Assembly: GCA_964605525.1 (NCBI GenBank)
Contig: CAZSCV010000006.1
Span: 434 to 64,433, forward strand
Length of the DNA: 64,000 nt
Source of the DNA: an uncultured Bdellovibrionales bacterium
GTDB taxonomy: Bacteria; Patescibacteriota; Minisyncoccia; Moranbacterales; UBA9337
Direction: 5' to 3'
Under the pieces are notes generated by a model. That model ran no database searches. It was given only the letters and a program-made list of their open reading frames with translations, and had not been told where the DNA came from. Positions 9,208 to 58,889 of this stretch are shown here, piece by piece; within the stretch, counting starts at the first letter, position 1; each line of letters opens with the position of its first letter. A program made the translations under genes and the position numbers.

Positions 9208-9238
9208 AATAATTTGCTCGATTGAATAATGAAGCTCT

Positions 9239-9347
9239 CGGTTTTCCGGAAAAATGTTTTTTTCGCAGCTGTCCGTGTCCCTCGAAAGGACCGGAGAAAA
9301 AAATATTTTTCCGGAAAACCATCTGGAGACTACCTGAATGCGCAAGT
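9239..9347. repeat. 108-nt intergenic repeat, copy A (copy B at 18490..18598)
   Basis: About 90% identity to 18490..18598 (cggttttc[c/t]g[g]aaaaatgtttttttcgcagctgtccg[t/c]gtccctcgaaaggaccggagaaaaaaata...acgcaagt). It contains a short hairpin GTCC-N7-GGAC. Confidence 0.6.
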
Positions 9348-9401
9348 CTCAAAAGAAAGAATAACATATTCAAAAGGGACAATTGGAAAAAGAAAAATTT
9401 A

Positions 9402-11040: not shown

Positions 11041-11418
11041 TTATTTTTTGCGGACAATAATACATCCGCGAGAATCCGAGCATTCCGGTCTCAAACCCTC
11101 AAACTTGGAATACGGGTCGACAAGAAAATACCATGTCCCCTCCTTATCCTTCCAGGTATAGAGGAATCCCTCATCCGGATTTGCCGGGTCCAGCTTGAAT
11201 GAGTGGACAGGACCGAGGTCTGTGTTCCTCGTTCCCTTCCCGTCGCGGTGATACACCACGACATTCAAGAGCTCAGTCCCTGCCGGCATGGGCGGAATTG
11301 TCACCTCATCCCCCACGCAACTCGGCACGGCATTCACCCACTTGGGAGCCGCCTGCGCGATCCCTATCAGACAAAAAAACACTGCCACTGCCACGAAAAA
11401 ACCGATTGTCTTTTTCAT
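11041..11418 (-). CDS. Small secreted protein (GC-rich island)
   Basis: Likely start MKKTIGFFVAVAVFFCLIGIAQA (signal peptide). Local GC is about 50%, against about 35% in flanking DNA. Confidence 0.45.
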   Translation of the reverse strand: MKKTIGFFVAVAVFFCLIGIAQAAPKWVNAVPSCVGDEVTIPPMPAGTELLNVVVYHRDGKGTRNTDLGPVHSFKLDPANPDEGFLYTWKDKEGTWYFLVDPYSKFEGLRPECSDSRGCIIVRKK

Positions 11419-11594
11419 GATGCTTCCTCCTGTTGTTTGCCGACATATTATAGTCGGTTTTTTTGTTGAAAAAATTCTTTTCCCACAACCCAATGTTGCG
11501 GAAAAGTTCGTTCTTTCAAAATAAAAATAGAGATAAGTGGATCCTTCAATGAAGGACCCACCCATAAATAATTCTGCTCAATAATCAAACAGAA

Positions 11595-13154: not shown

Positions 13155-13156
13155 AA

Positions 13157-14098
13157 CTACCTCCTTGGCGCGCTCAGCGCCTCTGTGAGTTGTTTCGCAT
13201 TGAATTGATTTCTTTTATAAACTTCATTTTGAGCAAGGATCAAAAGATATTCCATAGTGAACGCCATATTGCGACGATTCGGAATCTCAGAATTATAATC
13301 CCAACCGGTACTCGGGGCATTACCTGCTCCAATCAAATCCATCGCCACATTAATGGAATTGCAAATCGCAAATCCGGTCGGATCCGGGATAGGATTGATA
13401 CGGAACGTCCCCGTCCCAATAAGCTTCTGAAAATAGCTGTATTGCGGATTAATTCCGCGGATTTTCGCTACTTCATTCACTCCACAGGGAGACAAAAGAT
13501 ATCCTTCTGGATATTGAATTTGATTCCAAGTCTTAATGACATATTGAAACTTCTCAATCCGGGAAAGCGAACTCAGATTAAAAATGTTGCCATTTTCATC
13601 CGTGTTCACTTCTCTTATTTTTTCTTTCCGATACGCGGGATCAGCAAGAAACTTTCCCCGCTCTACGGGCAATTCTCTTCCGTATGGGCTGTAAATATAA
13701 TCCACAGCTGAAGAAAGAATCGCCGTCTGTCCGGAAGAAATTTGACCATCGATAACTTCCGTTCCGAAATACTGTCCCGAAGGATGCATTCCGGAAAAAA
13801 TCACTTGACCAAATCTCTCAGAATTATCATCCAAAATTGTCCACGTATTCCAACGCAGACGCCCTGGATAATATTCCCCAAACAGCTTAAGTGGAAAAAC
13901 TACCATAAAAGTAGAAATATCCCCTTTACTAATTGCCAGAGTCGGCTCCAACCCCAAAGACTGATGAGGCTGAACCAAAAGATTAACTTGATTTTCAGGC
14001 AAAGAAGCATTCTCCACCCGAAGCTCTTTTCCAGCGCACCCCGAAAGAAGCGCTACGACAAAAAATATAACAGTAAGACTTCTCAGAAAATTTTTCAT
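13157..14098 (-). CDS. Lipoprotein, hypothetical (GC-rich island)
   Basis: Likely start MKNFLRSLTVIFFVVALLSGCAG (lipobox). High-GC composition. Confidence 0.5.
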   Translation of the reverse strand: MKNFLRSLTVIFFVVALLSGCAGKELRVENASLPENQVNLLVQPHQSLGLEPTLAISKGDISTFMVVFPLKLFGEYYPGRLRWNTWTILDDNSERFGQVIFSGMHPSGQYFGTEVIDGQISSGQTAILSSAVDYIYSPYGRELPVERGKFLADPAYRKEKIREVNTDENGNIFNLSSLSRIEKFQYVIKTWNQIQYPEGYLLSPCGVNEVAKIRGINPQYSYFQKLIGTGTFRINPIPDPTGFAICNSINVAMDLIGAGNAPSTGWDYNSEIPNRRNMAFTMEYLLILAQNEVYKRNQFNAKQLTEALSAPRR

Positions 14099-14162
14099 CA
14101 CGCACCTCCCGATGCAGTTTTTTGATTTGGAATAATATTGGGAATTAACTTCCCATATATAT

Positions 14163-14202
14163 CTCATCATTACCATATTACGAAATATGGTAATGTTTAT
14201 AT
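14163..14202. promoter_or_regulatory. Palindromic operator-like site ATTACCATAT-TACGAA-ATATGGTAAT
   Basis: Perfect 10-bp inverted repeat about 70 nt upstream of the island lipoprotein gene. It shares the half-site ATTACCATAT with the repeats flanking the TrpR-like gene at 55.45 kb and 56.03 kb. Confidence 0.4.
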
Positions 14203-14411
14203 TGATTACCTATTAAATTGTCAAGGCAACTTATTTTATTACACATTTTCTCACGACCGTGAGTTAATGTGTGAAAAAAATATATCCAACGCTTGGGACT
14301 TCCAAGCGGAAGAGTGAGTTTTGGAAGAATACGTTTTGAAAAAACATACCGATCTCCAAACAACTCACCACTTCCACCAAGAATTATATTTATTGTTTCA
14401 TGTTTTATATC

Positions 14412-14457
14412 TGTCTTACGTCCTACATTTTACGTCTTATGTCTTACGTCTTACGTC
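14412..14457. repeat. Heptamer tandem repeat (GTCTTAC-like) x about 6
   Basis: ctgtcttacgtcctacattttacgtcttatgtcttacgtcttacgtct. Related to the (GTCTTAA)n array at 19788..19858. Confidence 0.6.
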
Positions 14458-18461: not shown

Positions 18462-18489
18462 AACCTGCATAATTAAATGACAAGACTCC

Positions 18490-18598
18490 CGGTTTTCTGA
18501 AAAAATGTTTTTTTCGCAGCTGTCCGCGTCCCTCGAAAGGACCGGAGAAAAAAATACTTTTTCGGAAAACCATACGAAAATTACCTGGATACGCAAGT
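18490..18598. repeat. 108-nt intergenic repeat, copy B
   Basis: See copy A at 9239..9347. Confidence 0.6.
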
Positions 18599-18614: not shown

Positions 18615-19733
18615 TTAACATTTCAACCAATCCAAAGTTTCCTTCGCGCATTTTTCCCAAGAAAACTTTTCCGCCTGGATTGCCCCCTTTTCAATCATCG
18701 TTTTTCGCAAATCCCCATCAGAAAGGATTTTTTTTATTTTTACAAACAATTCTTCCGAATCAAGCGCATTAAAATACTCCGCTGCTTCCCCTCCTGCCTC
18801 ACGCAAGCTTGAATTATCCGCAGCAATCACAGGAATCTTTGATGCCATCGCTTCCAAAATGGGAATTCCAAATCCTTCATACAAAGAAGGAAAAACAAAA
18901 ATGCCGGCATTGCGAAACAGCACCGCCAAGCTGGAAAAATCAACTCTCCCGGTCAAAACAATATCCTCTCGGAAAGGGCTTTTCTCCACTTTCTCAATCA
19001 CACCCTCCCACATCCACGCCTTGCTTCCTGCCAAAACCAACTTAATACTGCTATTCGTTTTATTTTTATATTTTTCAAATGCGCAAATCAAAGTCTCCAA
19101 ATTCTTACGAGGCTGAATAGCACCGACATACAATAAATAATCCTTGGATTGTAAATTGTGAGTTTTCAATATTTCCTTTTTTTTATTTTCAGAAATTTCG
19201 TTTTGAAATAATTTTCCGTCAAAACCATGATGAACCACTTTTATTTTTTTCTCATCAAAATGAGGATAAAATTTCAAAATATCCCTTTTCGTTGAATGAG
19301 AAATCGCAATTAATTTATCAGCATTTCCAACTGCCATATCCGTCAAAAAATTAATCTGCCTCAAATCCTTTTTCGGGAAACTTTCCGGAAAAATCTTGAA
19401 AGCCAAATCATGAATTGTTACTACCGTTTTCAGTCCAGATTTTCGAACCAAGGGAATATTATGCATCGGCATCCACAAAACATCCGGATTATCCCGCCAA
19501 AGAGATCCAGCGAATCCGGTTTGTGTCCAAAGACAAGGAGAGAAAACTTTTTTTATTTTGTAATTGGAAAAATTTTCCGGAACCAATTCCGGATTAAACT
19601 CCCGACGATGATAAATATCAAAATCATCGCCAAACCCCAATTTCCCAAAATATTTAAGCAAATTCAAAAGATAAACCCTTGTCCCGTCTATCCGTTTATT
19701 ATCCAAATCCGCCGCCTGAATCGCAATTTTCAT
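18615..19733 (-). CDS. Glycosyltransferase family 4
   Basis: GT4 motifs (GSKAWMWEG...EGFGIPILEAMASKIPVIAADNSSLREAGGEAA). Probable start MKIAIQAADL. Confidence 0.75.
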   Translation of the reverse strand: MKIAIQAADLDNKRIDGTRVYLLNLLKYFGKLGFGDDFDIYHRREFNPELVPENFSNYKIKKVFSPCLWTQTGFAGSLWRDNPDVLWMPMHNIPLVRKSGLKTVVTIHDLAFKIFPESFPKKDLRQINFLTDMAVGNADKLIAISHSTKRDILKFYPHFDEKKIKVVHHGFDGKLFQNEISENKKKEILKTHNLQSKDYLLYVGAIQPRKNLETLICAFEKYKNKTNSSIKLVLAGSKAWMWEGVIEKVEKSPFREDIVLTGRVDFSSLAVLFRNAGIFVFPSLYEGFGIPILEAMASKIPVIAADNSSLREAGGEAAEYFNALDSEELFVKIKKILSDGDLRKTMIEKGAIQAEKFSWEKCAKETLDWLKC

Positions 19734-19787
19734 ATTACTAATTACTAATATATACAAATTTACGAATGATACTTATACCCTAAATTT

Positions 19788-19858
19788 AAGTCTTAAGTCT
19801 TAAGTCTTAAGTCTTAAGTCTTAAGTCTTAAGTCTTACGTCTGTCTTACAACCCCAGT
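19788..19858. repeat. Heptamer tandem array (GTCTTAA)7 plus GTCTTAC variants
   Basis: Seven perfect tandem GTCTTAA units followed by GTCTTAC units, immediately 5' of the GT4 gene start on the minus strand. Confidence 0.8.
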
Positions 19859-20115: not shown

Positions 20116-20260
20116 TCATTCTGGCAAGGACAAAATAATAAAATATTTTTCTTACACTGTCTTTGTGCAGTCAGGATAAATTATTTTTGCGCAAACCAAC
20201 CGAGCGTTTAAAATATATATCTACTAAATCCAAAAGGGACACTTGGAAGAAAAATATTTT
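20116..20260. mobile_element. MITE-like element (145 bp) with 27-bp terminal inverted repeats
   Basis: ggacaaaataataaaatatttttcttac at 20116..20142 matches the reverse complement of 20234..20260 (ggacaaaacaataaaatatttttcttcc). Internal blocks (tgtctttgtgc, caaaccaaccga, ccaaaagggaca.ttgga) are shared with the element at 53157..53309. Confidence 0.45.
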
Positions 20261-21026
20261 ATTGTTTTGTCCGGTTTAATTTTTCCGATCCTACATTCAG
20301 GTTCAGTTTCTGCAAAAATTCCGCCAATTCTTCGCCAACAAGCTCCCTCTTTTCTCCTGCATGCAAAGCGCCCAATTTAATACTCATTACTCTCGTCCTT
20401 TTCAAATCAAGCACCCGATAATCCAGCGCACTGCACATTCTCCTGATCTGATGGCGTTTTCCTTCAGAAAGAACAATACTAAAAGTATAATCATCTATTT
20501 TCCGAGCCTTGCACGGTTTGGTAATTTCTCCGCCCTCCAAATCCATTCCCCCGCAAACAATACGGAAAAACCGGTCCTTCAGTTTTTTGTCCACACGCAC
20601 TCGATATTCTTTTTCGTGGTCATATTTCGGATCAAGAAGTTTTCCTGTAATCCTTCCGTCATTAGTTGCGACAATAAGCCCGTGCGAATCCTTGTCGAGT
20701 CGCCCAACCGTAAAAACTCCCTCGGGAAAATCCGCAATATCTGCCACGCTTTTTTCTCCTTCAGCAGGACTCACTGTTACAATCCCTATGGGCTTGTTAA
20801 AGACAAAATATTGCAATTTCTTGAAATTTTTAACTTTCTTACTCACATCCACCTGGTCGCCTTCGGAAACCTTGTCCCCCACTTTGGCGTTTCTGCCGTT
20901 GATTTTTACCAACGAACGCGCCACCAAGACGTCTGCCTCCCGCCGGGAACAAATTCCTTTTTGCGCCAAATACTTGTTAATCCTCATCGGATACTCGTTT
21001 TTTTCTGCATTTTTAATTTCATTCAT
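20259..21026 (-). CDS. rluB: rRNA pseudouridine synthase (RsuA/RluB family) with S4 domain
   Basis: S4 domain (RINKYLAQKGICSRREADVLV) and the catalytic motif VGRLDKDSHGLIVATNDG. Confidence 0.85.
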   Translation of the reverse strand: MNEIKNAEKNEYPMRINKYLAQKGICSRREADVLVARSLVKINGRNAKVGDKVSEGDQVDVSKKVKNFKKLQYFVFNKPIGIVTVSPAEGEKSVADIADFPEGVFTVGRLDKDSHGLIVATNDGRITGKLLDPKYDHEKEYRVRVDKKLKDRFFRIVCGGMDLEGGEITKPCKARKIDDYTFSIVLSEGKRHQIRRMCSALDYRVLDLKRTRVMSIKLGALHAGEKRELVGEELAEFLQKLNLNVGSEKLNRTKQ

Positions 21027-23352: not shown

Positions 23353-24033
23353 TCAACAAACATATTTTCCTTTTTTGCAATCACTCACAATCTTTCCCTT
23401 TTCCAGAGCCACCACTCGCTTGTTCAATTTGTCCACCACTTCTCGGTCATGAGTCGCTAAAATCACCGTCGTACCGAGATCGTTTATTTTCATCAATAAT
23501 TTAATAATATCCCAGCTGGAATTCGGATCCAAATTTCCCGTCGGTTCATCAGCCACGATAATTACCGGTCGGTGAATCAAAGCGCGCGCCAATGAAACTT
23601 TTTGGCGCTCTCCTCCGGAAAGTTGGTTGGGATATTTTTCCATTTTGTCAGCCAAGCCCACAATATCCAAAATTTCCGGAACTTCTTCATTGATCTCTTG
23701 TGTTGTTTTTCCAACCACTTCCAGAGCGTAAGAAACATTCTTAAAAACAGTTTTCTCGCTGAGCAATTTGAAATCTTGAAAAACCGTTCCAATGTTCCGC
23801 CGGTAATATGGCAAATGCTTTTTTTTGATTGTCGCCAAATCGCGCCCGTCAAAAAGAACTTGTCCGGAAGTCGGTTGCTCCTCGGCATACAAAAGTTTGA
23901 GCAAAGTGGATTTTCCCGCCCCGCTAGGACCGATTATTGTGACAAATTCCCCTTTCTCAATTTTTAAATCAATCCCGTCCAACGCCATAAAATCTCCGGG
24001 AAAAATTTTTACAATATTTTCATATCTAATCAT
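23353..24033 (-). CDS. ftsE: Cell-division ABC transporter ATPase FtsE
   Basis: Walker A GPSGAGKST, signature LSGGERQ, Walker B IIVADEPTGNLD. Confidence 0.9.
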   Translation of the reverse strand: MIRYENIVKIFPGDFMALDGIDLKIEKGEFVTIIGPSGAGKSTLLKLLYAEEQPTSGQVLFDGRDLATIKKKHLPYYRRNIGTVFQDFKLLSEKTVFKNVSYALEVVGKTTQEINEEVPEILDIVGLADKMEKYPNQLSGGERQKVSLARALIHRPVIIVADEPTGNLDPNSSWDIIKLLMKINDLGTTVILATHDREVVDKLNKRVVALEKGKIVSDCKKGKYVC

Positions 24034-24061
24034 ATTTTTATATTTTAATTATACCATTTTT

Positions 24062-48606: not shown

Positions 48607-49866
48607 TTAGTCCACTTCAATTTCATTGTTTTTGCAAATCTTGGCGTATTCCAATGCGCTGGAGCGGATTTTGCGTTCAAGTGTTTTATAATCCATTTCA
48701 ATAAGTCCAAAGCGGGGCCAAAAACCACGAACTTCTGGAAATTCATAATTATCCAGCAGAGACCAATGCAAATATCCTCTCACATCGACTCCTTCACTAA
48801 TCGCTTTATATACCTGAACAAGATGATCCTTGATAAACTTTTCTCTTTTTCGATCATTAGCATCAGCAATACCATTCTCAGTTATATAAACAGGAAGATC
48901 ATATTTTTTCAAACCAATCAAAACCTTATAAATTCCTTCTGGATGAATTTCCCAACCAAGATCATTTCTTTTTTCATCTAATAATTCCCTAAACATGTCA
49001 GGAGAAATTAATAAACGCGTATAATAATTGCAACCAATGAAATCTTCATAACCATTTGCCTTCTTAGTAAAATAGTTTGAAAAATATGTTGGGATTGCAG
49101 AAATAAATTTATCCAATGGCTTAAATAATTTTGATTCATATACATAATAACTATGAGCAAGACCAACATTTGCAGCTTCATCTATTTGATGAATAAGAGC
49201 ATAAGATTTTTTATAAACAGACAGAAGATTAAAATATGCCTTTAAAAAAGTTATGAGATTTTTCTTTGCTGGTGGCTGAGCCCCAGTCAAATATCCAAAA
49301 CCCAAACCCACATTAGGTTCATTAACAACAATCCAAAATTTTACATCGTTTTTTAATTCACTAACAATCTTTTCAACAAATCTTAAAAAATATTTCTGAG
49401 ATTTTTTATTTATCCATCCTCCTTTTTCGTTGAACCAAACCGGCTCCGTCCAATGCCAAAGTGTCACAAAAGGCTCCATCCCTCGTTCTTTTAGAGCAAG
49501 AATGACTTTGCGATAATGCTCAATTTCTTTTTCATCAAATTTCCCCTCTTCGGGTTCAATACGCGACCATTCGATTGAAAATCTGTGCGCATTATGACCA
49601 AGTTCTTTGGCAATTTCAAAATCCTCTTCGTAGCGGTTATAATGGTCGCAAGCGCGGCCGGAAATATAATTTTCTTTTTCAAACATTTCCGGAAATTTTT
49701 CTTGTTGCCATTTTTTCCATTTTTTCCCAGCTTCTTCCGCCAATCTTTCGGCATTTTCTTTTTCCCACTCAGTCCAATTATTCCTCAAACCACCTTCAAC
49801 TTGATGTGCCGAAGTAGAAGCCCCCCACAAAAAACCTTTTGGAAATTTGAGTTTTTTAGTTTCCAT
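48607..49866 (-). CDS. Glycoside hydrolase family 1 (beta-glucosidase-like)
   Basis: FLWGASTSAHQVEG, the catalytic nucleophile ITENG, and YLHWSLLDNYEF. Confidence 0.8.
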   Translation of the reverse strand: METKKLKFPKGFLWGASTSAHQVEGGLRNNWTEWEKENAERLAEEAGKKWKKWQQEKFPEMFEKENYISGRACDHYNRYEEDFEIAKELGHNAHRFSIEWSRIEPEEGKFDEKEIEHYRKVILALKERGMEPFVTLWHWTEPVWFNEKGGWINKKSQKYFLRFVEKIVSELKNDVKFWIVVNEPNVGLGFGYLTGAQPPAKKNLITFLKAYFNLLSVYKKSYALIHQIDEAANVGLAHSYYVYESKLFKPLDKFISAIPTYFSNYFTKKANGYEDFIGCNYYTRLLISPDMFRELLDEKRNDLGWEIHPEGIYKVLIGLKKYDLPVYITENGIADANDRKREKFIKDHLVQVYKAISEGVDVRGYLHWSLLDNYEFPEVRGFWPRFGLIEMDYKTLERKIRSSALEYAKICKNNEIEVD

Positions 49867-50488
49867 TTTTATTTTTTACCAATCGATTATATATTCCGTA
49901 TTTCGAAACCACTTCCCGCAAAATCAAAGTTATCGCAAAAGAAACTGCAATCGCCAGACCCGTATTGATATTTTTCAAAAGATAAAAAGACAACGCGCCC
50001 CAAAATGCCGAAAAAACATAATTTGATCCGTGCGTGAGCGAAAGCGGAACACCTCCCATAATCGCATCGCGAATCAAACCCCCGCCAAATCCGGTGAGCA
50101 TCCCCAAAAAAACCGAAACCAAAAGCGAATTCAAAGAAAAATGATTACCTCCGAACAAAAAAGAATTGGAAATTGAAACTCCAATAATCACAAACGCCGC
50201 CAACCCGACCGAATCAATAAAACGAAAAAAGGAATATTTTTTCTCAAAAAATGACGGTGCCGCATAAATCACAACTCCCGCCAAAATCGCCACCAATAGA
50301 TAATTTGGATCTTTGAAATAAAAAAGCGGAGTCCTGCCGATTGCCACATCACGAAAAGTTCCCCCGCCAACCGCCGTAATAATTCCCAAAAAAATCACAC
50401 CGAAAATGTGCAATCGCGCACCCTTAGCCTTGTACGCCCCCGTCACCGCAAATGCAAATGTCCCTAATAAATCCAAAAAATACAGCAT
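49856..50488 (-). CDS. UPF0126 / TRIC-like (YadS/YicG family) membrane protein
   Basis: Two repeated GGG..RD motifs (GGGTFRD, GGGLIRD) in a 7-TM protein. Confidence 0.65.
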   Translation of the reverse strand: MLYFLDLLGTFAFAVTGAYKAKGARLHIFGVIFLGIITAVGGGTFRDVAIGRTPLFYFKDPNYLLVAILAGVVIYAAPSFFEKKYSFFRFIDSVGLAAFVIIGVSISNSFLFGGNHFSLNSLLVSVFLGMLTGFGGGLIRDAIMGGVPLSLTHGSNYVFSAFWGALSFYLLKNINTGLAIAVSFAITLILREVVSKYGIYNRLVKNKNGN

Positions 50489-50502
50489 ATGGTTTTTAAT
50501 TC

Positions 50503-51138
50503 CTATCTTTTCTCCAAAATTTCCAGAATTCTGCCAATTTTTTCCCTATCCAACTGTTCCAATTTTTTCGAAATGGCGCAGATTTCTCTTTCTGCCTTTT
50601 TGTCCGTCGCCAAATCCATTTCCCATTTTTTCCGATCCCGCTCCGCATCCCGATTCTGGCTCATCATAATAATCGGCGCTGCATACGCCGCTTGAAAACT
50701 AAGCGCCAAATTCAAAAGAATAAACGGATATGGATCCCAATGATTCATCCAAGCCACTACATTCAAAACAACCCAAATTCCAAAAATAATACTCTGAATT
50801 ATGATAAACTTCCAGCTTCCAATTACTGCCGTTATTCTGTCCGATGCCTTTTCTCCAAAACCAAGCTTACTATTTGAATGTCTGGGCGCGATATTGTTTT
50901 TAACAATCGGATTATTTTTTCCAATCGCACAGCAACACGCCCACTTTTGAATCAATTGAAATAAGAAATAAACAAAATTGGCAGATACAACGAAAATGAA
51001 AAATGCCACAGACACCAAAGCTAGTGTAAAAAAGAAAAAATCCTCCGCTCCAAAAAAGGCATAAATAATATTGTGCAAAAGCAAGGAAGATATGAAAACT
51101 GCCAATGACCACCAAATTATGCTTATTCTTTTTTTCAT
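50503..51138 (-). CDS. DUF1003-family membrane protein
   Basis: PFILLNLALSFQAAYAAPIIMMSQNR followed by a charged coiled tail. Confidence 0.5.
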   Translation of the reverse strand: MKKRISIIWWSLAVFISSLLLHNIIYAFFGAEDFFFFTLALVSVAFFIFVVSANFVYFLFQLIQKWACCCAIGKNNPIVKNNIAPRHSNSKLGFGEKASDRITAVIGSWKFIIIQSIIFGIWVVLNVVAWMNHWDPYPFILLNLALSFQAAYAAPIIMMSQNRDAERDRKKWEMDLATDKKAEREICAISKKLEQLDREKIGRILEILEKR

Positions 51139-51251
51139 TTTTATTTTATTTTATTTTTACTACATTTGCATAATACCACAATAATCTGAATTTTTCAAAA
51201 TTTAAAATCAAAAAACCGCCTGATTTTTCAGGCGGCTTAAGCAGTGTCTTC

Positions 51252-52568
51252 TTATTTTTTCTCAATTTTTTCCATATTATTCGGCATCCATTTTCGCAGC
51301 GCCTCCGGGATTATGACGCTTCCATCTTGCTGTTGATAATTTTCCAAAATGGCGATTATTATTCTTGGGGAAGGGATGGCAGTATTGTTAATCATATGGA
51401 CAAAATTCTTTTTCCCTTCGCTGTTTTTGTACCGCACATTCAACCTTCTCGCTTGCCAATCCAAAAAATTCGAAGCTGATCCTGTTTCCCCCCAGCGGTT
51501 CATTCCCGGCATCCACGCTTCCAAATCAAACATTTTGTATTTTCCAGCACTCATATCCCCGGTACAAATACTCAAAACGCGATAAGGCAATCCCAAATCC
51601 CGATGAAGCTCTTTGGAAATCTCCACCATCTCCAAGTGCATTTTATTTGAATCATCAATATTATTTTTCGTAAGGCAGACCTGTTCCACTTTCATAAATT
51701 CATGCACGCGATACAAGCCTTTGGTATCTTTTCCATAACTTCCAATCTCACTGCGATAGCACTGAGAAAACCCGCAAAATTTTACCGGAAGCTGGGACTC
51801 ATCCAAAATTTCATTAGCATAATACGCCAACAAAGAAGGCTCGGCTGTGCCCACTAGAAATTTATTCTCTTTATTTATTCCGCCTTCTTCATTTTTATCT
51901 ATATTTTCAATTTTATATATCTCATCAACTTCAGGATCGAAATTCTTTCCGGAAAAATATCCCGTCCCGAAAAGCACGAATTCTTTTACCAGAGTTGGAG
52001 GAATAATCGGAGCAAATCCTTTTTGAACCAATTTTTCCAAAGTAAACATCATCAGTGCCATCTGCAAACTTGCTCCTTCATTTTTCATATAATAACCCCG
52101 ATATCCGGCAACTTTAGCCCCTCGTTCGAAATCAATAATATCCAAATCTTTCGCAATTTCAATATGCGTCTTGGGTTCAAAATCGAATTTTAAAATTTCT
52201 CCTGATTTTTCAATTTCAACATTATCCTTTTCATCTCTTCCAACTGGAGTATCTTCTGAAGGAATATTCGGAACTTTCACCATCATGTCATCAAAATTTT
52301 TCTGTGTTTTTTCCAATAGCGGTTCCAGCCTTAACAATTTTTCTTTTACTTCTTTTCCTCTTTCGATAACCGATTTTTTATCTTCAGCCCTCTGCATATC
52401 TTCATTAATTTTGTTTTTCTGAGCCTGAAGTTCTTCAATTTCTTGCATCATTTTCACGCGTTCTCTATCCATTTCCAAAAGACGATCCAAATCAAGATTG
52501 ATATTTTTGTTTTCAATAGCCTTTTTCAATTCCTGGCTATTTTCTCTGATAAATTTAATATCCAACAT
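51252..52568 (-). CDS. serS: Serine--tRNA ligase
   Basis: N-terminal coiled-coil arm plus class II core motifs. Confidence 0.9.
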   Translation of the reverse strand: MLDIKFIRENSQELKKAIENKNINLDLDRLLEMDRERVKMMQEIEELQAQKNKINEDMQRAEDKKSVIERGKEVKEKLLRLEPLLEKTQKNFDDMMVKVPNIPSEDTPVGRDEKDNVEIEKSGEILKFDFEPKTHIEIAKDLDIIDFERGAKVAGYRGYYMKNEGASLQMALMMFTLEKLVQKGFAPIIPPTLVKEFVLFGTGYFSGKNFDPEVDEIYKIENIDKNEEGGINKENKFLVGTAEPSLLAYYANEILDESQLPVKFCGFSQCYRSEIGSYGKDTKGLYRVHEFMKVEQVCLTKNNIDDSNKMHLEMVEISKELHRDLGLPYRVLSICTGDMSAGKYKMFDLEAWMPGMNRWGETGSASNFLDWQARRLNVRYKNSEGKKNFVHMINNTAIPSPRIIIAILENYQQQDGSVIIPEALRKWMPNNMEKIEKK

Positions 52569-52634
52569 AAAATCATTTTAACTTTTTAACATACTAGCAT
52601 ATTAGCATTTATTCCCTATTTTTGCAATAAAACA

Positions 52635-53114
52635 TTGACACATCCGACGCTTCGTCCTAAACTGAAACAACGTAAAAAATATTCCGCTAATCCTTCAAGA
52701 AAAAAAATAATGTCCCAAAAAAAATTTCAGGAAAAATTCAAAGTGAAAAAATCCGGCTCCGGACTCGGTCTTTTTGCCGAAAAAGATTTTAAAAAAAATG
52801 ACTTCGTAATTGAATATACCGGGGAAATTATTTCTGAAAAAGAAGCCGAGAAACGCCAAGGAAAATATCTTTTTACCATAAATTCAAAGTGGTGCATCGA
52901 CGGAAAAGAAAGAAAAAACATCAGTCGCTATATCAATCATTCTTGCCGACCAAACTGCGAAGCTCGCTTATCGGGAAAAAAAGTTTTTATTTATGCCAAG
53001 AAGAAAATCCTCCCGGGAGATGAGTTGACTTACAATTATGGAAAAGAATACTTTGACGAATTCATCAAGCCTTATAGTTGCAAATGCCAAGCTTGCCAAA
53101 AGATACCATTTTAA
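52635..53114 (+). CDS. SET-domain protein lysine methyltransferase (likely start at 52710, MSQKKF)
   Basis: GLGLFAEKDFKKNDFVIEYTGEII, the NHSCRPNC motif, ELTYNYG, and a post-SET CKCQAC. Confidence 0.75.
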   Translation: MTHPTLRPKLKQRKKYSANPSRKKIMSQKKFQEKFKVKKSGSGLGLFAEKDFKKNDFVIEYTGEIISEKEAEKRQGKYLFTINSKWCIDGKERKNISRYINHSCRPNCEARLSGKKVFIYAKKKILPGDELTYNYGKEYFDEFIKPYSCKCQACQKIPF

Positions 53115-53156
53115 AAAAAATACTCCCTTGGTCTTTTCAACTGCAATAAGCTTCAG

Positions 53157-53309
53157 TTTTAAAAAAAATAATAAATTTTTATTTTTACTCTTGTCTTTGT
53201 GCGTATAAAAAAAGAACTCCGTACTCAAACCAACCGAAAATTAGAAAAACAAGATAAATATAGCCAAAAGAGGCAATTGGAAAAATAAAAATTTATTATT
53301 TTTTTAAAA
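53157..53309. mobile_element. MITE-like element (second copy of the family at 20116..20260)
   Basis: The 30-bp terminal inverted repeats ttttaaaaaaaataataaatttttattttt (53157..53186) match the reverse complement of 53279..53309. Internal blocks are conserved with the other copy. Confidence 0.45.
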
Positions 53310-53319
53310 TTTATATTTT

Positions 53320-53760
53320 TCAAATATCAACCAAGAATAATTTATTTTTCAATTTCGAGGACTTATATATCTCTGATTTGTATGCTTTCAAGCGAAAAAT
53401 CTCCGTTTTATCCAATTCAAACTCCCTTAATTTTTCTTCCAACTCTTCAATAAAAAATTTCTGGTCATATCCCAAGCAAATCACGTCCGGTTTGTGCTTT
53501 TTTATGATTGCATATTTATCTCCCAAACCTCCCAAAACAACTTCGTCCGCCAAGGCGCTTTTCTGAATCATTCTCATTCGTGCTTGTTCCTTGTTTTTTG
53601 TATCTTGTTTTTTGAAAACTTTGACTGTTTTATCCCGCGCCACGACCACAATCAAATAATCCCCGAATTTCCTTGCCTGCCGCAAAAAACTCCGGTGCCC
53701 CGGATGGAAAATATCAAAAGTCCCGAAAACCATCACTTTCTTTTTTCCGCTCTTATCCAT
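53320..53760 (-). CDS. Cytidylyltransferase-family nucleotidyltransferase (HxGH; TagD/RibL-like)
   Basis: VMVFGTFDIFHPGHRSFLRQAR. The size of 146 aa is typical of glycerol-3-P cytidylyltransferase or FAD synthase (RibL-type). Confidence 0.65.
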   Translation of the reverse strand: MDKSGKKKVMVFGTFDIFHPGHRSFLRQARKFGDYLIVVVARDKTVKVFKKQDTKNKEQARMRMIQKSALADEVVLGGLGDKYAIIKKHKPDVICLGYDQKFFIEELEEKLREFELDKTEIFRLKAYKSEIYKSSKLKNKLFLVDI

Positions 53761-54347
53761 TATTTTTTAACACTGTCCAAATATTTTTTAATTCCCAATC
53801 CCCGATGGCTGATTTGCGCTTTTTCATCCTCGGAAAGTTCGGCATAATTTTTTCCAAAATGCAAAGAGTGGAAAATCTTATCATAACCGAAATCCGCTTC
53901 GCCACGAAATTCATCCGTAATGTATCCCTCCGCTTTGTTTTCAAATTCAAAAAAATCATCATTTTCAGGGCTATAAATCGCCAAAGCGCCGATATATCGG
54001 CAAGTCCTTTCCTTTTCCGGAATATGTTTCAATTTTTCCTGCAATTTCAAGCATCGATCCAAATCAGTTCCATGATGCCATCTTTTCGAATGAAGTCCCG
54101 GAGCGCCGGAAAGCGCATCGACAAAAAGACCCGTGTCATCAGACAAAGAAACCAGACCGGACTTTTTTCCAAAATACTCCGCTTTCTTTTTCGCATTTTC
54201 CATCAGCGTTTCAGCATCTTCCTCGACATCATCAAAAATACCAACATCAGAAAGTGAAACCAATTCAAAATCAGCCCCATGGATTTTGAAAATTTCTCGA
54301 AACTGGTCAAGTTTATTTTTATTGGTTGTCGCAATCAATAATTTCAT
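53760..54347 (-). CDS. rdgB: dITP/XTP pyrophosphatase (Ham1/RdgB)
   Basis: LLIATTNKNKLDQFREI...SGLVSLSDDTGL...HSKRW. Confidence 0.85.
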   Translation of the reverse strand: MKLLIATTNKNKLDQFREIFKIHGADFELVSLSDVGIFDDVEEDAETLMENAKKKAEYFGKKSGLVSLSDDTGLFVDALSGAPGLHSKRWHHGTDLDRCLKLQEKLKHIPEKERTCRYIGALAIYSPENDDFFEFENKAEGYITDEFRGEADFGYDKIFHSLHFGKNYAELSEDEKAQISHRGLGIKKYLDSVKK

Positions 54348-54778
54348 TTTATTTTGCTCAAATCTCCGTTAATAATAATCGGCTGCACCGCCTCGATTTC
54401 ATCCAAGTATCCACACTCTTCTTTTTTTGGATACGGATTATACATAAAAATCTTTTTATTATTTACATAAGCAAATCCCAATTCCATCAGTACGTTTCCT
54501 CCGATATAATTTTCCTTACCATTTTTTTCTAAATTAACAACCAAAACCGCATCACTAGAAACAATTGCATTGTAATACCATCTAATGTAATCATTTTCAA
54601 TCTTGGCTTTGGCATGTTCTCCATTTTCTACCAAACTCCAAATTTCCTGCCTCTTTCCTTGAACAAAATCCTCATAATGCGGATGAATCACAGCATCATG
54701 CCCCATTTCTATCAACTCTTTTTTAAGAGCAACTTTTTTTTCCTTAAATGCGCTACTCCCTAATATAGTAATCCTCAT
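54344..54778 (-). CDS. Nucleoside 2-deoxyribosyltransferase-like protein
   Basis: The pattern ILGSS...DAVLVVNL...GGNVLMELGFAYV is characteristic of the NDT/YtoQ fold. Confidence 0.5.
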   Translation of the reverse strand: MRITILGSSAFKEKKVALKKELIEMGHDAVIHPHYEDFVQGKRQEIWSLVENGEHAKAKIENDYIRWYYNAIVSSDAVLVVNLEKNGKENYIGGNVLMELGFAYVNNKKIFMYNPYPKKEECGYLDEIEAVQPIIINGDLSKIK

Positions 54779-54805
54779 ATGTATGTTTATTTTAAAAAAA
54801 AATTA

Positions 54806-55393
54806 TTATTTAATTTCTATTCCCATTTTCTTAAGCATCTCCACGACGCATTCGATTGGAATCCCCCGCGTCAGATTATTATAGCTGCCGGAAATATTTT
54901 TCACAAAAGTCGCGCTGTAATGCCCGAGCGGATCAAACCCAAGCGCATAAGTGCTGAATTTATCGTCTTGACTCAGATATTTTTCAATTTCTTTCTCATC
55001 AATATCTCGCATATTCACATCGGTTTTCACAACGGATTTCATAGTTCTCCCGTTTTCAGCATCAACTAAAAAAATTCCCGTGTAAAATTGAAACGACTTC
55101 CCGGAAAGATTTTTCAGCCTTTTTTCCGCGTCTTTTTTTGATTTTGGTTTTTCCAATATCTTTCCGTCAAACCACCCGACGGAATCAAAACCGACAACAA
55201 TCCCTTCGTTGACTTTTTCTGCCACCACCTGCGCTTTTTGCCTAGCAAGCTCTTGCACAAGTTCCTCAGGGCTATCAGGCCTTCCCTCAAATTTTTCTTC
55301 GATTTCACTATCCATTGCCTCAAAATCAATCCCAATTGAGCGAAATAATTCCTGTCGATAAGGCGAAGTAGTCGCCAAAATTATTTTTTTCAT
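54806..55393 (-). CDS. maf: Maf-like nucleoside triphosphate pyrophosphatase
   Basis: MKKIILATTSPYRQELF...GFDSVG...SATFVKNISGSYNNLTRGIPIE. Start at the internal Met. Confidence 0.8.
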   Translation of the reverse strand: MKKIILATTSPYRQELFRSIGIDFEAMDSEIEEKFEGRPDSPEELVQELARQKAQVVAEKVNEGIVVGFDSVGWFDGKILEKPKSKKDAEKRLKNLSGKSFQFYTGIFLVDAENGRTMKSVVKTDVNMRDIDEKEIEKYLSQDDKFSTYALGFDPLGHYSATFVKNISGSYNNLTRGIPIECVVEMLKKMGIEIK

Positions 55394-55445
55394 AACAAGT
55401 AAAAAAAAATCAGCTTTTATTGAAAAATAAACATAATTCAATTTA

Positions 55446-55488
55446 TCATATTACCATATTTTGAAATGTTGAAATATTGTAATATTTC
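55446..55488. promoter_or_regulatory. About 43-nt direct repeat with operator-like palindrome (copy 1, upstream of maf)
   Basis: tatcatattaccatattttgaaatgttgaaatattgtaatatttc is identical to 56026..56069 and contains ATTACCATAT-N13-ATATTGTAAT plus GAAATATTGTAATATTTC. Confidence 0.55.
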
Positions 55489-55547
55489 ACAATTTTATAA
55501 TTTTAACCGTACTATATATCTACTGCTTATTGCCTGCCTGTTTCATA

Positions 55548-55961
55548 TCAATTGAACAAATTTTTTATAAAACGATGATAAGGATATTTATCCAGCAAGC
55601 TTTCGGGATTATATGTCATTTTGTTTTTTGTCTTCTTGTTTTTACCTACTTCGTCCACTTTAGTCTTAATCAATTTTTCATAATCGCTCCCCTTGCTGTG
55701 CACCCATCTGTCAATTTGTTGAATTGTATTATTCCCAACATTCAATTTTTTCCTGATATTTTCATAATTCTCTCCTTCCAGTATCATTTTGGCGATTTGA
55801 ATTCTTCTGGCAAGCATTAACGATTCACTGGGCGTAAAAAGTCCCAAGAGAAAATCCACAATTTCCTTTTTGGTTTTCAATTTTGATATGACTTCAAACA
55901 TACCGTCAATAGCGACATATTTTTCTTTATGATCAATCTGATACGGATTAACTTTTGCCAT
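55548..55961 (-). CDS. TrpR-family (YerC/YecD-like) DNA-binding protein
   Basis: ...TPSESLMLARRIQIAKMILEGENYENIRKKLNVGNNTIQQIDRW matches the Trp-repressor-like HTH family. Confidence 0.55.
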   Translation of the reverse strand: MAKVNPYQIDHKEKYVAIDGMFEVISKLKTKKEIVDFLLGLFTPSESLMLARRIQIAKMILEGENYENIRKKLNVGNNTIQQIDRWVHSKGSDYEKLIKTKVDEVGKNKKTKNKMTYNPESLLDKYPYHRFIKNLFN

Positions 55962-56025
55962 CTTATTTTGAATTACTTTTTTATATTATCCGAATCTATC
56001 CCCACTATATATCCTCACTATATAT

Positions 56026-56069
56026 CATTATTACCATATTTTGAAATGTTGAAATATTGTAATATTTCT
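56026..56069. promoter_or_regulatory. About 43-nt direct repeat with operator-like palindrome (copy 2, upstream of the TrpR-like gene)
   Basis: Identical to 55446..55488. Confidence 0.55.
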
Positions 56070-56101
56070 TATTATCAACTATTTTTTAATTTCAATGAAT
56101 A

Positions 56102-56470
56102 TTAAATTCTTTTTAAGGATTCGAAATTTATTTTAGGGTCGTTTTTATCGAAAACATCGATGACTTTGTATTTTCCTTTTGTCCAAATTTCTCCGTTTTC
56201 CAAAAAATGGGTCGCTTCCAGGATTTTTATGCTGGCAATCGGACGGGACAATTTTTCATCGCCTCCGGTTTTGCAAAGCGGAATTTGACCGCCACCCCAA
56301 AACTCACTATCACTGAGCCAATACAATCTTTGACCTTTTTTGAGAAATTCAAAAACCTCTCCCACCTTGAGGTTCTCCGGTACACATTCTTGGATTTCCC
56401 TTTTTCCGGATTTATGCTCAGAAATATCCCTCAGCGCCAAATCCGGATTAAACTCAACAACAATTCCCAT
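56102..56470 (-). CDS. Hypothetical protein
   Basis: 122-aa ORF with no recognisable motif. Confidence 0.35.
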   Translation of the reverse strand: MGIVVEFNPDLALRDISEHKSGKREIQECVPENLKVGEVFEFLKKGQRLYWLSDSEFWGGGQIPLCKTGGDEKLSRPIASIKILEATHFLENGEIWTKGKYKVIDVFDKNDPKINFESLKRI

Positions 56471-56481
56471 AGTATTTTAAA

Positions 56482-57351
56482 TTAATTAGCACTATATTTT
56501 CCTTTAGTGAATCCATTATTAAAATATTCTAAATCATCACTTTCTAATAATTTTTCAATATTATAGCCCTCATTTATTTTATTTTCTTTAAAAATCTCTT
56601 TTTTAGGTGCCACTTCATGGTGTGTCAAAAGACCCATTTCTGGCCAATACATTTTTCTCTCCCAATTCCCATCTCCATTAATATGAGAATGTACAGGTTC
56701 TCTGTCTTTTAAAATAAATATTCTCTCAAAAGCTCTTTTTCTAGCTGAACCGCCAAATTTTTGCTCCCTTGCAATCGCTGTCATAAAACGCATCAACGTT
56801 AATTTCTCCAGCATTACATTTCCACCATTTTTATACAAAAACAATTCTCCGTATTTTTTATAAAACTCTCCATAATTAACAGGAAACATTTTATATTTTC
56901 TCGCCCATTTTAAATTAACAATAAAAAAATCAACTGCCATACCAACATCTTTTATATCATTTTTTTCAGCCACTCCCCAAGCGCAAGTAGTCAAAAGAAG
57001 CCCTTCCTTATCCATTTTATTTATAATATCCTTTAAATAATTTGGATTAATAAGCCATGTATCAGCAGCTAAGATAATTACATAATCAACATCATTTTTA
57101 AATTTTTTTATACCAACATCAATCAAATCTGATGCGCCTTGAAAATGCCAAGTATTTTTTGTTGTTATTAGATAATCTTCTAGATATCTTTCGGGATACC
57201 ACTCTTTTTTTCCGTTAAAAGAATGGATAATTTTTACGTTATCAAAAAAAACATCCTTTTGCCAAACATTTCTGATAATTTCCATGTTTATCCTGGCATC
57301 ATCCACTCTATTGTAGGTATAAATCAAAACTCCAATATTCTTGTTTTTCAT
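56482..57351 (-). CDS. Putative glycosyltransferase (GT-A-like)
   Basis: An N-terminal IGVLIYTYNR motif and an acidic DxD-like motif (ILAADTW). Weak. Confidence 0.4.
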   Translation of the reverse strand: MKNKNIGVLIYTYNRVDDARINMEIIRNVWQKDVFFDNVKIIHSFNGKKEWYPERYLEDYLITTKNTWHFQGASDLIDVGIKKFKNDVDYVIILAADTWLINPNYLKDIINKMDKEGLLLTTCAWGVAEKNDIKDVGMAVDFFIVNLKWARKYKMFPVNYGEFYKKYGELFLYKNGGNVMLEKLTLMRFMTAIAREQKFGGSARKRAFERIFILKDREPVHSHINGDGNWERKMYWPEMGLLTHHEVAPKKEIFKENKINEGYNIEKLLESDDLEYFNNGFTKGKYSAN

Positions 57352-57357
57352 AATAAT

Positions 57358-58848
57358 TTATGCCTTACTCCTCACTGGTGGAAAGATTACTGTTTCTCGG
57401 ACTGATTTGTTCATTAGGAAGGCGAAAAGGCGTTCGGAGAAGCCGAAGCCGAAGGCGGGGGGCATTCCATATTCCATCGCCTCGATAAAATCCTCATCCA
57501 GCATTTGCGCCTCCTTGTCTCCCGCTTCGCGAAGCTTTACCTGATCCTCAAATCTTTTTCTTTGTTCAATTGGATCATTAAGTTCGGAAAAAGCATTGCA
57601 AAGTTCAGATTTTCCCGCCACCAATTGCATACGCAAAACCTTTTTCGGATTATTTGGATCGCTTTTTGCCAAAGGAGAAACTTCGATCGGATGCCCGACC
57701 AAAAAACACGGCTGGATCATTTTTTGACGAACAGTTTTTTTGTAAATCGTATCAATCATTCTTCCTTTTCCATATTCTTTTTCATACTTAATTCCCAATT
57801 CATCCGCCTTCGCTTTTAAAGCTTCGGCGGACAAGTCCGCTTCATTTAAATCCAACCCTGTCTCTTTTTTGAAAGCGTCAAAATAATCAACTCTCGGAAA
57901 AGGTTTGTTCCAATCTATTTTATTGCCCTCGAACTCTGTTTCATACCCCCCGATAACATTAATAACAATAGTCTTGAAAAGCCTTTCGGAAAATTCCATT
58001 CCTTTTTCTAAATCCGAATAAGCCCAATAAAATTCCATATGATCAAATTCCTGGAGATGCTCACGATCCATTCCTTCATTGCGAAAAACCCTTCCAATTT
58101 CAAAAACCTTTTCATATCCACCCACTAAAAGCCTCTTGAGTGGAAGCTCCAGAGAAATGCGCAAATACAAATCTTCATCCAACGCGTTGTAATGCGTGAC
58201 AAAAGGATCCGCCTCCGCTCCGCCGGGAATATGTTCCAAGACCGGAGTTTGCACCTCCAGAAAATCTTCATTCACCAAAAAATTACGGATAGTTTGCCAA
58301 AAGATATTTTTCTTGCGAAAAAGTTTTCGCGTTTCGGAGTTAGAAAGCAAATCCAAATATCTTCTTCGCAAAAGCTCTTCCGTATCTTTGATGCCAAAAT
58401 GTTCAGTCGGAATTGGACGGATATTCTTACTCAGAACTTTCCAATCATGCACTTCCAAACTTTTTTCTTCCTTTTTTGTTTTGAAAAGTTTTCCACTTAC
58501 TTGGACAAAATCCCCCAGCTCAATATTTTTTACAAATAACTTATATTTGTCTTCGGGAATATTTTTCTTATTTAAAAATAATTGCATTCTTCCTGTTTCA
58601 TCTTCGATATGCGCAAATGCCGAACCGCCCATTGGTCGCAATGAACGGACACGTCCAACAAGAAAAATTTCATCTGTTATCGTGTCGAATTCATCCAGAG
58701 CCTCTCTATTGCTCATTGAACGCTCGGATTTTTCCGGAAATATTTCCATTCCGGATTCTCTCAAATTATTCAATTTTTCCAATTTAGTTTGCAAAATATC
58801 TTCTCTCATATTGATTTTTAGATTTTGATTAAGAAATTTATTAGACAT
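57358..58848 (-). CDS. lysS: Lysine--tRNA ligase (class II)
   Basis: N-terminal OB domain and class II motifs (GRVFRNEGMDREHLQEFDHMEFYWAY; GFGFSERL). Start MSNKFL. Confidence 0.9.
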   Translation of the reverse strand: MSNKFLNQNLKINMREDILQTKLEKLNNLRESGMEIFPEKSERSMSNREALDEFDTITDEIFLVGRVRSLRPMGGSAFAHIEDETGRMQLFLNKKNIPEDKYKLFVKNIELGDFVQVSGKLFKTKKEEKSLEVHDWKVLSKNIRPIPTEHFGIKDTEELLRRRYLDLLSNSETRKLFRKKNIFWQTIRNFLVNEDFLEVQTPVLEHIPGGAEADPFVTHYNALDEDLYLRISLELPLKRLLVGGYEKVFEIGRVFRNEGMDREHLQEFDHMEFYWAYSDLEKGMEFSERLFKTIVINVIGGYETEFEGNKIDWNKPFPRVDYFDAFKKETGLDLNEADLSAEALKAKADELGIKYEKEYGKGRMIDTIYKKTVRQKMIQPCFLVGHPIEVSPLAKSDPNNPKKVLRMQLVAGKSELCNAFSELNDPIEQRKRFEDQVKLREAGDKEAQMLDEDFIEAMEYGMPPAFGFGFSERLFAFLMNKSVRETVIFPPVRSKA

Positions 58849-58889
58849 TCCTAATTTACCGCATTTAAAGCAAAAATGCAATAAAACAA

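Follow-up and report, generated by a model that had tools for sequence, protein, structure and literature searches.

What do two almost identical repeats do on either side of a gene for a TrpR-family protein? The question is raised by a 64,000-nt stretch of DNA (referred to as the window throughout) on contig CAZSCV010000006.1 (assembly GCA_964605525.1) of an uncultured member of the Moranbacterales, which belongs to the candidate phyla radiation (CPR). The gene, a homolog of yerC, is bracketed by the repeats, and a related site lies about 41 kb away in the same window. We consider it probable from sequence comparison, the approach used throughout, that the 137-amino acid (aa) YerC/HisR-like regulator encoded between the repeats has its cognate operators in them. 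The family of the protein, the non-random occurrence of the sites, the conserved site-gene-site bracket, the distinct sites of paralogs, the 6+8n series of half-site spacers and the promoter-proximal position of the sites were all observed computationally. Along transcription, with all genes on the minus strand, a 122-aa gene (56102-56470) comes first, followed by repeat copy B, yerC, repeat copy A, maf and the rest of a gene cluster. The features on which the argument turns are as follows.

56023-56068 (46 nt, strand-neutral): repeat copy B, 5′ of yerC; contains a 34-bp candidate operator at 56030-56063 with half-sites at 56030-56039 and 56054-56063.
55548-55961 (minus strand): yerC-like gene, an open reading frame (ORF) encoding the 137-aa TrpR-family (YerC/YecD/HisR-like) regulator, with a C-terminal extension of ~35 aa.
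55444-55488 (45 nt, strand-neutral): repeat copy A, lying after the yerC stop and before the maf start; contains a 34-bp candidate operator at 55450-55483 with half-sites at 55450-55459 and 55474-55483.
54806-55393 (minus strand): maf, nucleotide pyrophosphatase family (PF02545, 148 bits), the first gene past copy A.
14169-14194 (strand-neutral): third site, a canonical 26-bp palindrome ATTACCATAT-N6-ATATGGTAAT with the centre TACGAA and perfect half-sites.

A 39-nt core, ATTACCATATTTTGAAATGTTGAAATATTGTAATATTTC, was present in two exact copies in the window (55450-55488 and 56030-56068), and none of 100 shuffled windows contained even one match to it at ≤3 mismatches. A pairwise alignment of 55444-55488 with 56023-56068 showed that the shared block agrees at 45 of 46 nt, with one 1-nt indel and 40 nt exact. 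An earlier note on this DNA had described identical 43-nt repeats at this locus; the duplication was confirmed, whereas the coordinates given for it were 2-3 nt off. Each flanking copy contains the near-complementary, inverted half-sites ATTACCATAT and ATATTGTAAT, which are separated by 14 nt (55460-55473 in copy A) and not by 13 nt as first described. The 18-nt sequence GAAATATTGTAATATTTC, which had been called a perfect palindrome, consists of 8-nt arms around a GT that is not self-complementary. A G-to-T change in one half-site created AATATT-GT-AATATT, and this near-palindrome is probably an incidental by-product of that change. The third site, on the other hand, was present at 14169-14194 with perfect half-sites around TACGAA, exactly as had been claimed.

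The same note had raised the concern that the motif might be frequent in random contexts, which was not the case within the 64 kb. The 8-mer TACCATAT occurred four times, every time at one of the three sites, and the motif is therefore not a common AT-rich word. A relaxed scan of the window (≤4 mismatches in total, spacers of 6, 14 or 22) gave, beyond the three sites, overlapping sub-matches and a few weak matches, the best of these at 24008-24049, against a null of ~1 per shuffled window. This weak candidate for a fourth site reads TTTACAATAT-N22-ATATTTTAAT with 1+1 mismatches and an interior of 8-bp periodicity. It overlaps the start of a gene at 23353-24033 (minus strand), and chance in AT-rich DNA could explain it. 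With three good sites and this weak one in 64 kb, and with sites that go with yerC-like genes from genome to genome, the motif does not resemble dispersed intergenic repeats of the REP/BIME or MITE kind. Both flanking copies were unchanged in two further independent assemblies (100% and 99.97% identity), which excludes an assembly artefact.

The proposed TrpR/YerC classification of the 137-aa protein passed in hidden Markov model (HMM) searches with both Pfam and NCBIfam, and a profile search of the PDB and the predicted fold agreed with it. The protein scored 47.7 bits against the PF01371 Trp_repressor model (cut-off 27) over residues 19-99. It passed the YerC/YecD model TIGR02531, a hypothetical-equivalog model, marginally (42.4 bits, cut-off 42.2), and failed the TrpR equivalog model TIGR01321 (22.8 against 67.25 bits). 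A PDB profile search with 26 relatives identified the YerC-type structures 3FRW, 3G1C and 3KOR at E values of 1e-13 to 1e-15. The AlphaFold2 monomer model had a mean predicted local distance difference test score of 73.7 (83-92 at residues 30-90), with six helices over the TrpR-like residues 11-107 and a short one at the C-terminus. The top PDB matches of this model in Foldseek were YerC-type structures and E. coli TrpR alone, at a probability of 1.00. As modelled, the 137-aa protein is a member of the TrpR/YerC fold family with a predicted helix-turn-helix. Its C-terminal extension (~35 aa, ending SLLDKYPYHRFIKNLF) was kept in 26 of 26 aligned relatives and is absent from the HisR and TrpR proteins (<100 aa). 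The homologs belong to Candidatus Moranbacteria and to further Parcubacteria. Searched with an HMM, 1.84 billion cluster representatives yielded 602 clusters at E≤1e-10, and among the best 150 of these 602 approximately 60 aligned along nearly the whole profile, extension included.

Comparison with orthologous loci, which the earlier note had suggested, gave strong support to the operator reading. The comparison set consisted of 68 homologous loci from GTDB species representatives of Moranbacteria and Parcubacteria (loci are cited by their L numbers). At least 34 of the 68 carried the same palindrome on both sides of the yerC-like gene, one site lying 50-125 nt upstream of the ATG, as the own-promoter site does in most loci, and the other 0-130 nt past the stop (mostly <80). 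Most sites have the core CCATAT-N6-ATATGG in common, and the outer four bases vary by group (ATTA, CTTC, AAAC, ATGT, ACTC, TTGC and others). The bracket accompanies the gene family over 35-76% protein identity, and in remoter homologs (~36% identity; L060 and L061) unrelated palindromes were found at the two equivalent positions. Paralogs within one genome differ in their sites: L001 has ATTACC and L009 has GAATCC (GW2011_GWE2_35_2-), and further same-genome sets with distinct sites are L004 and L008; L024, L029 and L031; and L032, L035 and L045. Across groups, near-identical recognition helices were found with half-sites in common. Bracketed yerC genes were additionally met in L155, L184 and L191 from a metagenome scan, and strings of site-gene-site-gene were seen in L030 and L009.

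The loci closest to the window in organisation were L001 and L002, which are syntenic with it (neighbouring proteins 52-100% identical, YerC 74-75%). In both, the 26-bp sequence ATTACCATATTTCGTAATATGGTAAT, which is exactly the reverse complement of the third site of the window, occurs once before yerC and again just after it. The second copy stands directly before maf in L002; in L001 a CYTH-domain gene has been inserted ahead of maf, and the copy precedes this gene. Sites of the 26-bp ATTACCATAT-N6-ATATGGTAAT type, some with the outermost base changed, also lie on both sides of the gene in L071 (70% identity) and L072 (66%). Across 49856-58881 of the window, protein identity to L001/L002 changes from 52% to 100% between adjacent genes, and this mosaic suggests frequent recombination among related strains. 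Separately, L004 (4409-6567) and L005 (2-195) contain arrays of 2-4 palindromes at a phase of 83-84 bp, upstream of yerC and of both its neighbours. The sequence of these arrays resembles tandem duplicates of operator-bearing units and suggests cooperative binding between sites. The coordinates showed no obvious helical phase in how far apart the flanking sites lie across loci.

The 14-nt spacer of the window copies belongs to a series. Over all loci the half-site spacers were 6 (57 sites), 14 (7 sites) and 22 (2 sites), that is 6+8n, with one stray 17 and no other value between 0 and 32. The spacer-14 sites are the two in the window, two each in L022 and L031, and one in L034, so the 34-bp form is found at both flanks of one gene in the window, L022 and L031; a spacer-22 site, in L032, consists of three copies of AACCACAT. 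On the coding (minus) strand the window flanking site reads ATTA CAATATTT CAACATTT CAAAATAT GGTAAT, and deletion in silico of one 8-bp unit gives ATTACAATAT-TTCAAA-ATATGGTAAT, an ordinary 26-bp site. As the closest relatives have the 26-bp form on both sides, the window flanking pair is the derived, 34-bp version. The ancestral operator would then have been 26 bp with a 6-nt spacer, within which an 8-bp unit was duplicated in the window lineage, and the 34-bp version would have spread to both flanks, probably through gene conversion. The two window copies share post-duplication substitutions (CAACATTT vs CAAAATAT), which indicates that they were copied from one another and not expanded independently. 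The series may have arisen by slippage between quasi-repeated 8-bp units, by selection, or by both. The trp operator itself has three 8-bp repeats. In E. coli, the half-sites of TrpR lie on an 8-bp register and its operators can be bound as tandem dimers (PMC9413887; Lawson and Carey 1993); PDB entry 1TRR agrees with this by its title. By analogy, two overlapping dimers, not one, would probably occupy each 34-bp site.

Promoter-like sequences were found at all three sites of the window.

56017-56045 (minus strand): yerC promoter-like site; -35 TTCAAA, 17 nt, -10 TATAGT; consensus match 9/12.
55445-55472 (minus strand): maf promoter-like site, overlapping copy A; -35 TCAACA, 16 nt, -10 TATGAT; consensus match 9/12.
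14196-14224 (minus strand): third-site promoter, near-consensus sigma-70-type; TTGACA (14224-14219), 17 nt, TATAAA (14201-14196).
55997-56026 (minus strand): two tandem GATATATAGTG(R)GG motifs between candidate operator B and the yerC start.

At yerC, the operator spacer contains the -35 and the promoter spacer contains the right half-site. The third-site promoter stops 1 nt short of the operator (14194-14169), such that the operator spans the expected transcription start. In a generic promoter scan the flanking copies matched weakly and the third site did not match; the scan demands T at position 6 of the -10 and thus overlooks TATAAA, and the third-site promoter was picked out by eye. Relatives of the GATATATAGTG motif were present at 55504-55520, before site A, and as GATATATATGGG at 14150-14163, after the third site; AAATATAGGT occurs twice at the equivalent place in L001. 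This motif, which accompanies all three operators, may be a -10 or start-site element. In relatives, the site either covers the promoter or precedes a good extended -10 by 16-26 nt, which puts the site centre at approximately -42 to -52. No fixed register of the -10 and -35 relative to the operator was found across loci; the sites overlap likely promoters or just precede them. A co-directional gene begins ≤150 nt past the downstream site in 24 of 37 loci.

The third site precedes an operon of its own.

11041-14107 (minus strand): operon behind the third site, encoding a 316-aa lipoprotein (13157-14107), a 519-aa LysM protein (11595-13154) and a 174-aa protein (11041-11565).

A distance of 61 nt separates the site from the lipoprotein ATG downstream of it (14107, minus strand), a start that is backed by alignment with L113 and by a GGAGG ribosome-binding site. 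The lipoprotein had no Pfam match, and a Wzy_C-type membrane protein is encoded past the 174-aa protein. The context of 13157-14300 is orthologous in two metagenome loci, L113 (3130-4207; taken from a 788-kb contig) and L175 (506-1585): compared with the window, identity is 91% for the membrane protein upstream and nearly complete for the control region, site included, but only 28.6% for the lipoprotein. On these alignments, what lies behind the conserved control region is putatively variable surface-protein cargo. The GC content is 0.43-0.49 over 11.2-13.6 kb and ~0.37 around it. The earlier note had taken this island to be horizontally acquired; a moderately raised GC content and a 28.6%-identical lipoprotein behind a near-identical control region are what was seen, and they do not demonstrate acquisition. 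Other repeats occur in the window as well. Tandem 7-nt repeats (TTACGTC / TTAAGTC) are present in two intergenic regions ~5.3 kb apart (14416-14457 and 19786-19841). A 127-nt direct repeat of 85% identity (9221-9347 and 18472-18598) has one copy at the 5′-end of a glycosyltransferase gene (7990-9345, minus strand) and the other just downstream of a gene at 18615-19757 (minus strand).

Downstream of copy A, maf is followed by three further genes of the cluster.

54344-54778 (minus strand): 144-aa protein, weakly like nucleoside 2-deoxyribosyltransferase.
53760-54347 (minus strand): ham1/rdgB.
53320-53760 (minus strand): cytidylyltransferase-like protein.

In the other loci, the scanned genes past the downstream sites encode CYTH (two), HAD (three), HD (two), TatD (two), AIR-synthase-like, YecM and PAP2 proteins. 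A NUDIX gene was found by the scan in L007, and the gene in L011 starts with a nearly identical sequence; the gene start in L052 resembles the TatD gene of L054, making it a third TatD candidate. The genes at additional sites encode Maf, a LigT phosphoesterase, a nucleotidyltransferase-like protein and TerC. Judged from sequence, the genes past the downstream sites appear to be mostly small nucleotide or phosphoester hydrolases, with exceptions. Beyond the cluster of the window, a SET-domain protein (PF00856, from precomputed gene calls) is encoded at 52635-53114 (plus strand), between the cytidylyltransferase-like gene and the seryl-tRNA synthetase gene. A 77-nt intergenic motif (…CCAAAAGGGACACTTGGAA…TTTATTGTTTT) occurs at 9332-9408, 20192-20268 and 53226-53302 with 61-70% identity and no Rfam match; the third copy (53226-53302) lies just past the cytidylyltransferase-like gene on the coding (minus) strand.

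Put together, the operator reading would work as follows. The protein would bind the inverted half-sites ATTAC(C/A)ATAT through its helix-turn-helix. The upstream copy, over the yerC promoter, would serve autoregulation, and the downstream copy, over the maf promoter region, would control maf and the nucleotide-hydrolase genes behind it. The 26-bp site at 14169-14194, over the start of the lipoprotein/LysM operon, would bring that operon under the same control. To our knowledge, every characterised TrpR-family member is a repressor. The earlier note had proposed an autoregulated repressor that also controls a nucleotide-sanitising operon; comparison bears out the operator part of this proposal, and repression rather than activation follows family precedent only and is held with less confidence than the assignment of the sites. 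Given the theme of the predicted regulon, the ligand may be nucleotide-derived, which is likewise proposed less firmly than the operators, as is tandem binding at the 34-bp sites.

Several points weigh against this reading or parts of it. Binding of the protein to the sites, its stoichiometry and any looping between the two sites are things we infer from comparison. One rigid dimer cannot bind 6-nt and 14-nt spacings alike, and as the 14-nt spacing does not fit a 6-nt dimer geometry, the flanking sites may be bound in another way, less tightly or not at all. The yerC and maf promoter assignments are weak (9/12 consensus each), and the site centre at -42 to -52 in several relatives is equally compatible with activation. 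Past the downstream site the next ORF is convergent in 6 of 37 loci, and in some loci the site touches the yerC stop or runs into the predicted start of the next gene, so that a promoter would have hardly any space there. The half-site ATTACCATAT also recurs in groups whose recognition helices are rather unlike one another (L012, L014, L030 and L062), the central 6 bp then differing, and covariation of helix with site is thus not one-to-one. As L113 and L175 retain the entire intergenic region around the third site, conservation of the site there adds little independent evidence, and a homolog of the lipoprotein operon that was checked in L021 is without such a site.

A more far-reaching version of the operator reading was also considered, in which the loci are orthogonal, self-contained modules: operators would grow in 8-bp steps (spacers of 6, 14 and 22) and recruit tandem dimers, the paired or phased sites would cooperate through looping or through oligomerisation via the lineage-specific C-terminal extension, and the regulon would be one of nucleotide sanitation and salvage answering to a nucleotide ligand. 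We regard this as doubtful. If true, the TrpR family would gain both an effector class and an operator logic that are new to it.

An alternative that dispenses with protein binding is that the palindromes act as RNA hairpins at gene boundaries, as terminators or in processing or stabilisation, their association with yerC being secondary. The 26-bp form does make a stable hairpin of 12 bp (-13.8 kcal/mol, z -4.3) and was marked as terminator-like on the plus strand by a scan, but the 34-bp window copies, which are nevertheless identical at both flanks, fold no better than shuffled sequences (z -0.5 and -0.8). Downstream copies often lie 3-30 nt past the yerC stop, and the site-gene-site-gene strings of L030 and L009 would suit boundary elements; however, one copy is always upstream of the gene, in promoter territory. 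The sites are without a U-tract, their stems are AU-rich, the scan gave no coding-strand terminator at either flanking copy, and Rfam searches gave no match at the repeats. The inner CCATAT/ATATGG is common to most site groups and the outer bases change by paralog group, a pattern of protein recognition and not of stem covariation. Mismatches between the arms are mostly T-T, A-A or A-G and not G-U, with no wobble bias (64 vs 57) in a set that is noisy, the 8/10 threshold of the arm test letting in chance palindromes; a cleaner 9/10 set was judged by eye. We therefore consider the hairpin explanation unlikely.

A mobile or recombining cassette made up of site, gene and site is similarly improbable; in it, the palindromes would be recombination or insertion sites and the helix-turn-helix protein an accessory DNA-binding factor rather than a transcription factor. 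Identical repeats bracketing a gene would be expected of such a cassette, as would several paralogous units per genome, each with repeats of its own, and the concerted evolution of the two window copies. The asymmetric spacer is inverted between copies in L022, L050, L055, L030 and L072, and the position of yerC is shuffled relative to its neighbours among genomes, with a mosaic flanking identity of 52-100%. Yet no recombinase, transposase or integrase was found within or beside the unit, no empty-site/occupied-site polymorphism was seen, and the neighbourhood from GreA and LysRS to SerRS is constant in many genomes. Lone sites precede unrelated genes (the third site and its orthologs in L113 and L175), and the protein has, in its predicted structure, the complete fold of a TrpR-type regulator.

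The palindromes could also be operators of another regulator, the yerC-like gene being merely one of its targets. The link of this protein to the sites comes from comparison, and identical half-sites stand beside homologs with fairly different recognition helices. Against this, the site type switches whenever the adjacent paralog does, even within single genomes, which disfavours a regulator encoded elsewhere. Over the range of 35-76% protein identity the bracket stays with this gene family, and the N6 centre and AT-rich inner tetramers match the HisR/YerC operator (PMC9413887). We consider this explanation very improbable. Finally, chance or low-complexity coincidence in a genome of ~37% GC, or an assembly artefact, is refuted by the 0 of 100 shuffles, the two further assemblies and the bracket across dozens of genomes, even though a variable-gap metagenome scan gave mostly chance matches at every spacer length.

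That scan, with ATTACMATAT-N(6-14)-ATATKGTAAT, was rejected as a census of the regulon: its listed matches were spread evenly over the spacer lengths, which shows that most of them are chance. It also contained a spacer-14 cluster, ATTACCATATWTGGTAATTACCAWATATGGTAAT (L074, L090, L091, L096, L100, L115, L123, L133, L144, L149, L156 and L166), that was rejected as a further operator, as it is an unrelated element sharing only the half-site words. ATTACCATATWTGGTAATTACCAWATATGGTAAT lies upstream of a 136-aa gene (MKIEHQIDPRTLE…) beside a cggR-like regulator, probably in Firmicutes.

With the repeats read as operators of the YerC-like protein, the locus bears on a field in which little has been done. 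Transcriptional regulation in CPR/Patescibacteria is almost unstudied, and a search of the CPR/Patescibacteria literature, incomplete in its coverage, had neither Trp repressor nor YecD among its top-ranked matches. CPR bacteria are, by most reports, dependent on scavenged nucleotides, and the predicted targets, house-cleaning nucleotide hydrolases and a variable lipoprotein/LysM operon, touch both nucleotide scavenging and interaction with the host via the cell surface. The locus and its relatives offer a directly testable pair of regulator and operator, with a small, easily purified protein, sites of 26 and 34 bp and natural specificity variants among the paralogs. The 6+8n series is also a natural experiment on the tiling of DNA by TrpR-family dimers.

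Among known systems, the two identical sites 500-580 bp apart around a short transcription unit recall lac O1/O2, gal OE/OI and deo. Unlike in those systems, there is no sign here of oligomerisation beyond the dimer, and the spacing of the flanking sites is without a visible helical phase. As the downstream site usually also precedes another gene, it may simply be the operator of a second promoter, unlike an auxiliary operator of the lac, gal or deo kind.

E. coli TrpR is closer. It shares the fold (template modelling score 0.55-0.57 by query length and 0.7-0.75 by target length), it is autoregulated through palindromic operators (trp, aroH and trpR), and its 8-bp register and tandem dimers parallel the 6+8n spacers described here. 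It differs in its sequence (~16% identity), in its half-site and in its regulon, the one predicted here being unrelated to aromatic amino acids.

The nearest system is HisR (YerC of B. subtilis) of the Firmicutes, a TrpR-family histidine repressor of <100 aa that binds the 20-bp palindrome cacTTTA-N6-TAAAgtg and is often autoregulated via a site upstream of its own gene (PMC9413887). The protein of the window shares with HisR its membership of PF01371 and TIGR02531, and its nearest solved structures are of the HisR/YerC type (3G1C, 3FRW and 3KOR). The operators are alike in their 6-bp centre, AT-rich tetramers and GC-containing triplet (here ACCATAT-N6-ATATGGT at the third site and the ortholog sites), although the window flanking sites, with their 14-nt spacer, depart from the N6 geometry. 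In contrast to HisR, the protein has 137 aa with a conserved C-terminal extension, and its operator is conserved over 26 bp and not 20 bp, with expanded forms of 34 and 42 bp. Genomes carry several paralogs, each with distinct sites, and a second site systematically lies past the gene. No his or histidine-transport genes adjoined any site examined, the neighbours encoding nucleotide/phosphoester hydrolases and envelope proteins. As length, operator, paralogs, second site and regulon all differ, the protein is best classed as a member of the TrpR/YerC family and not as HisR.

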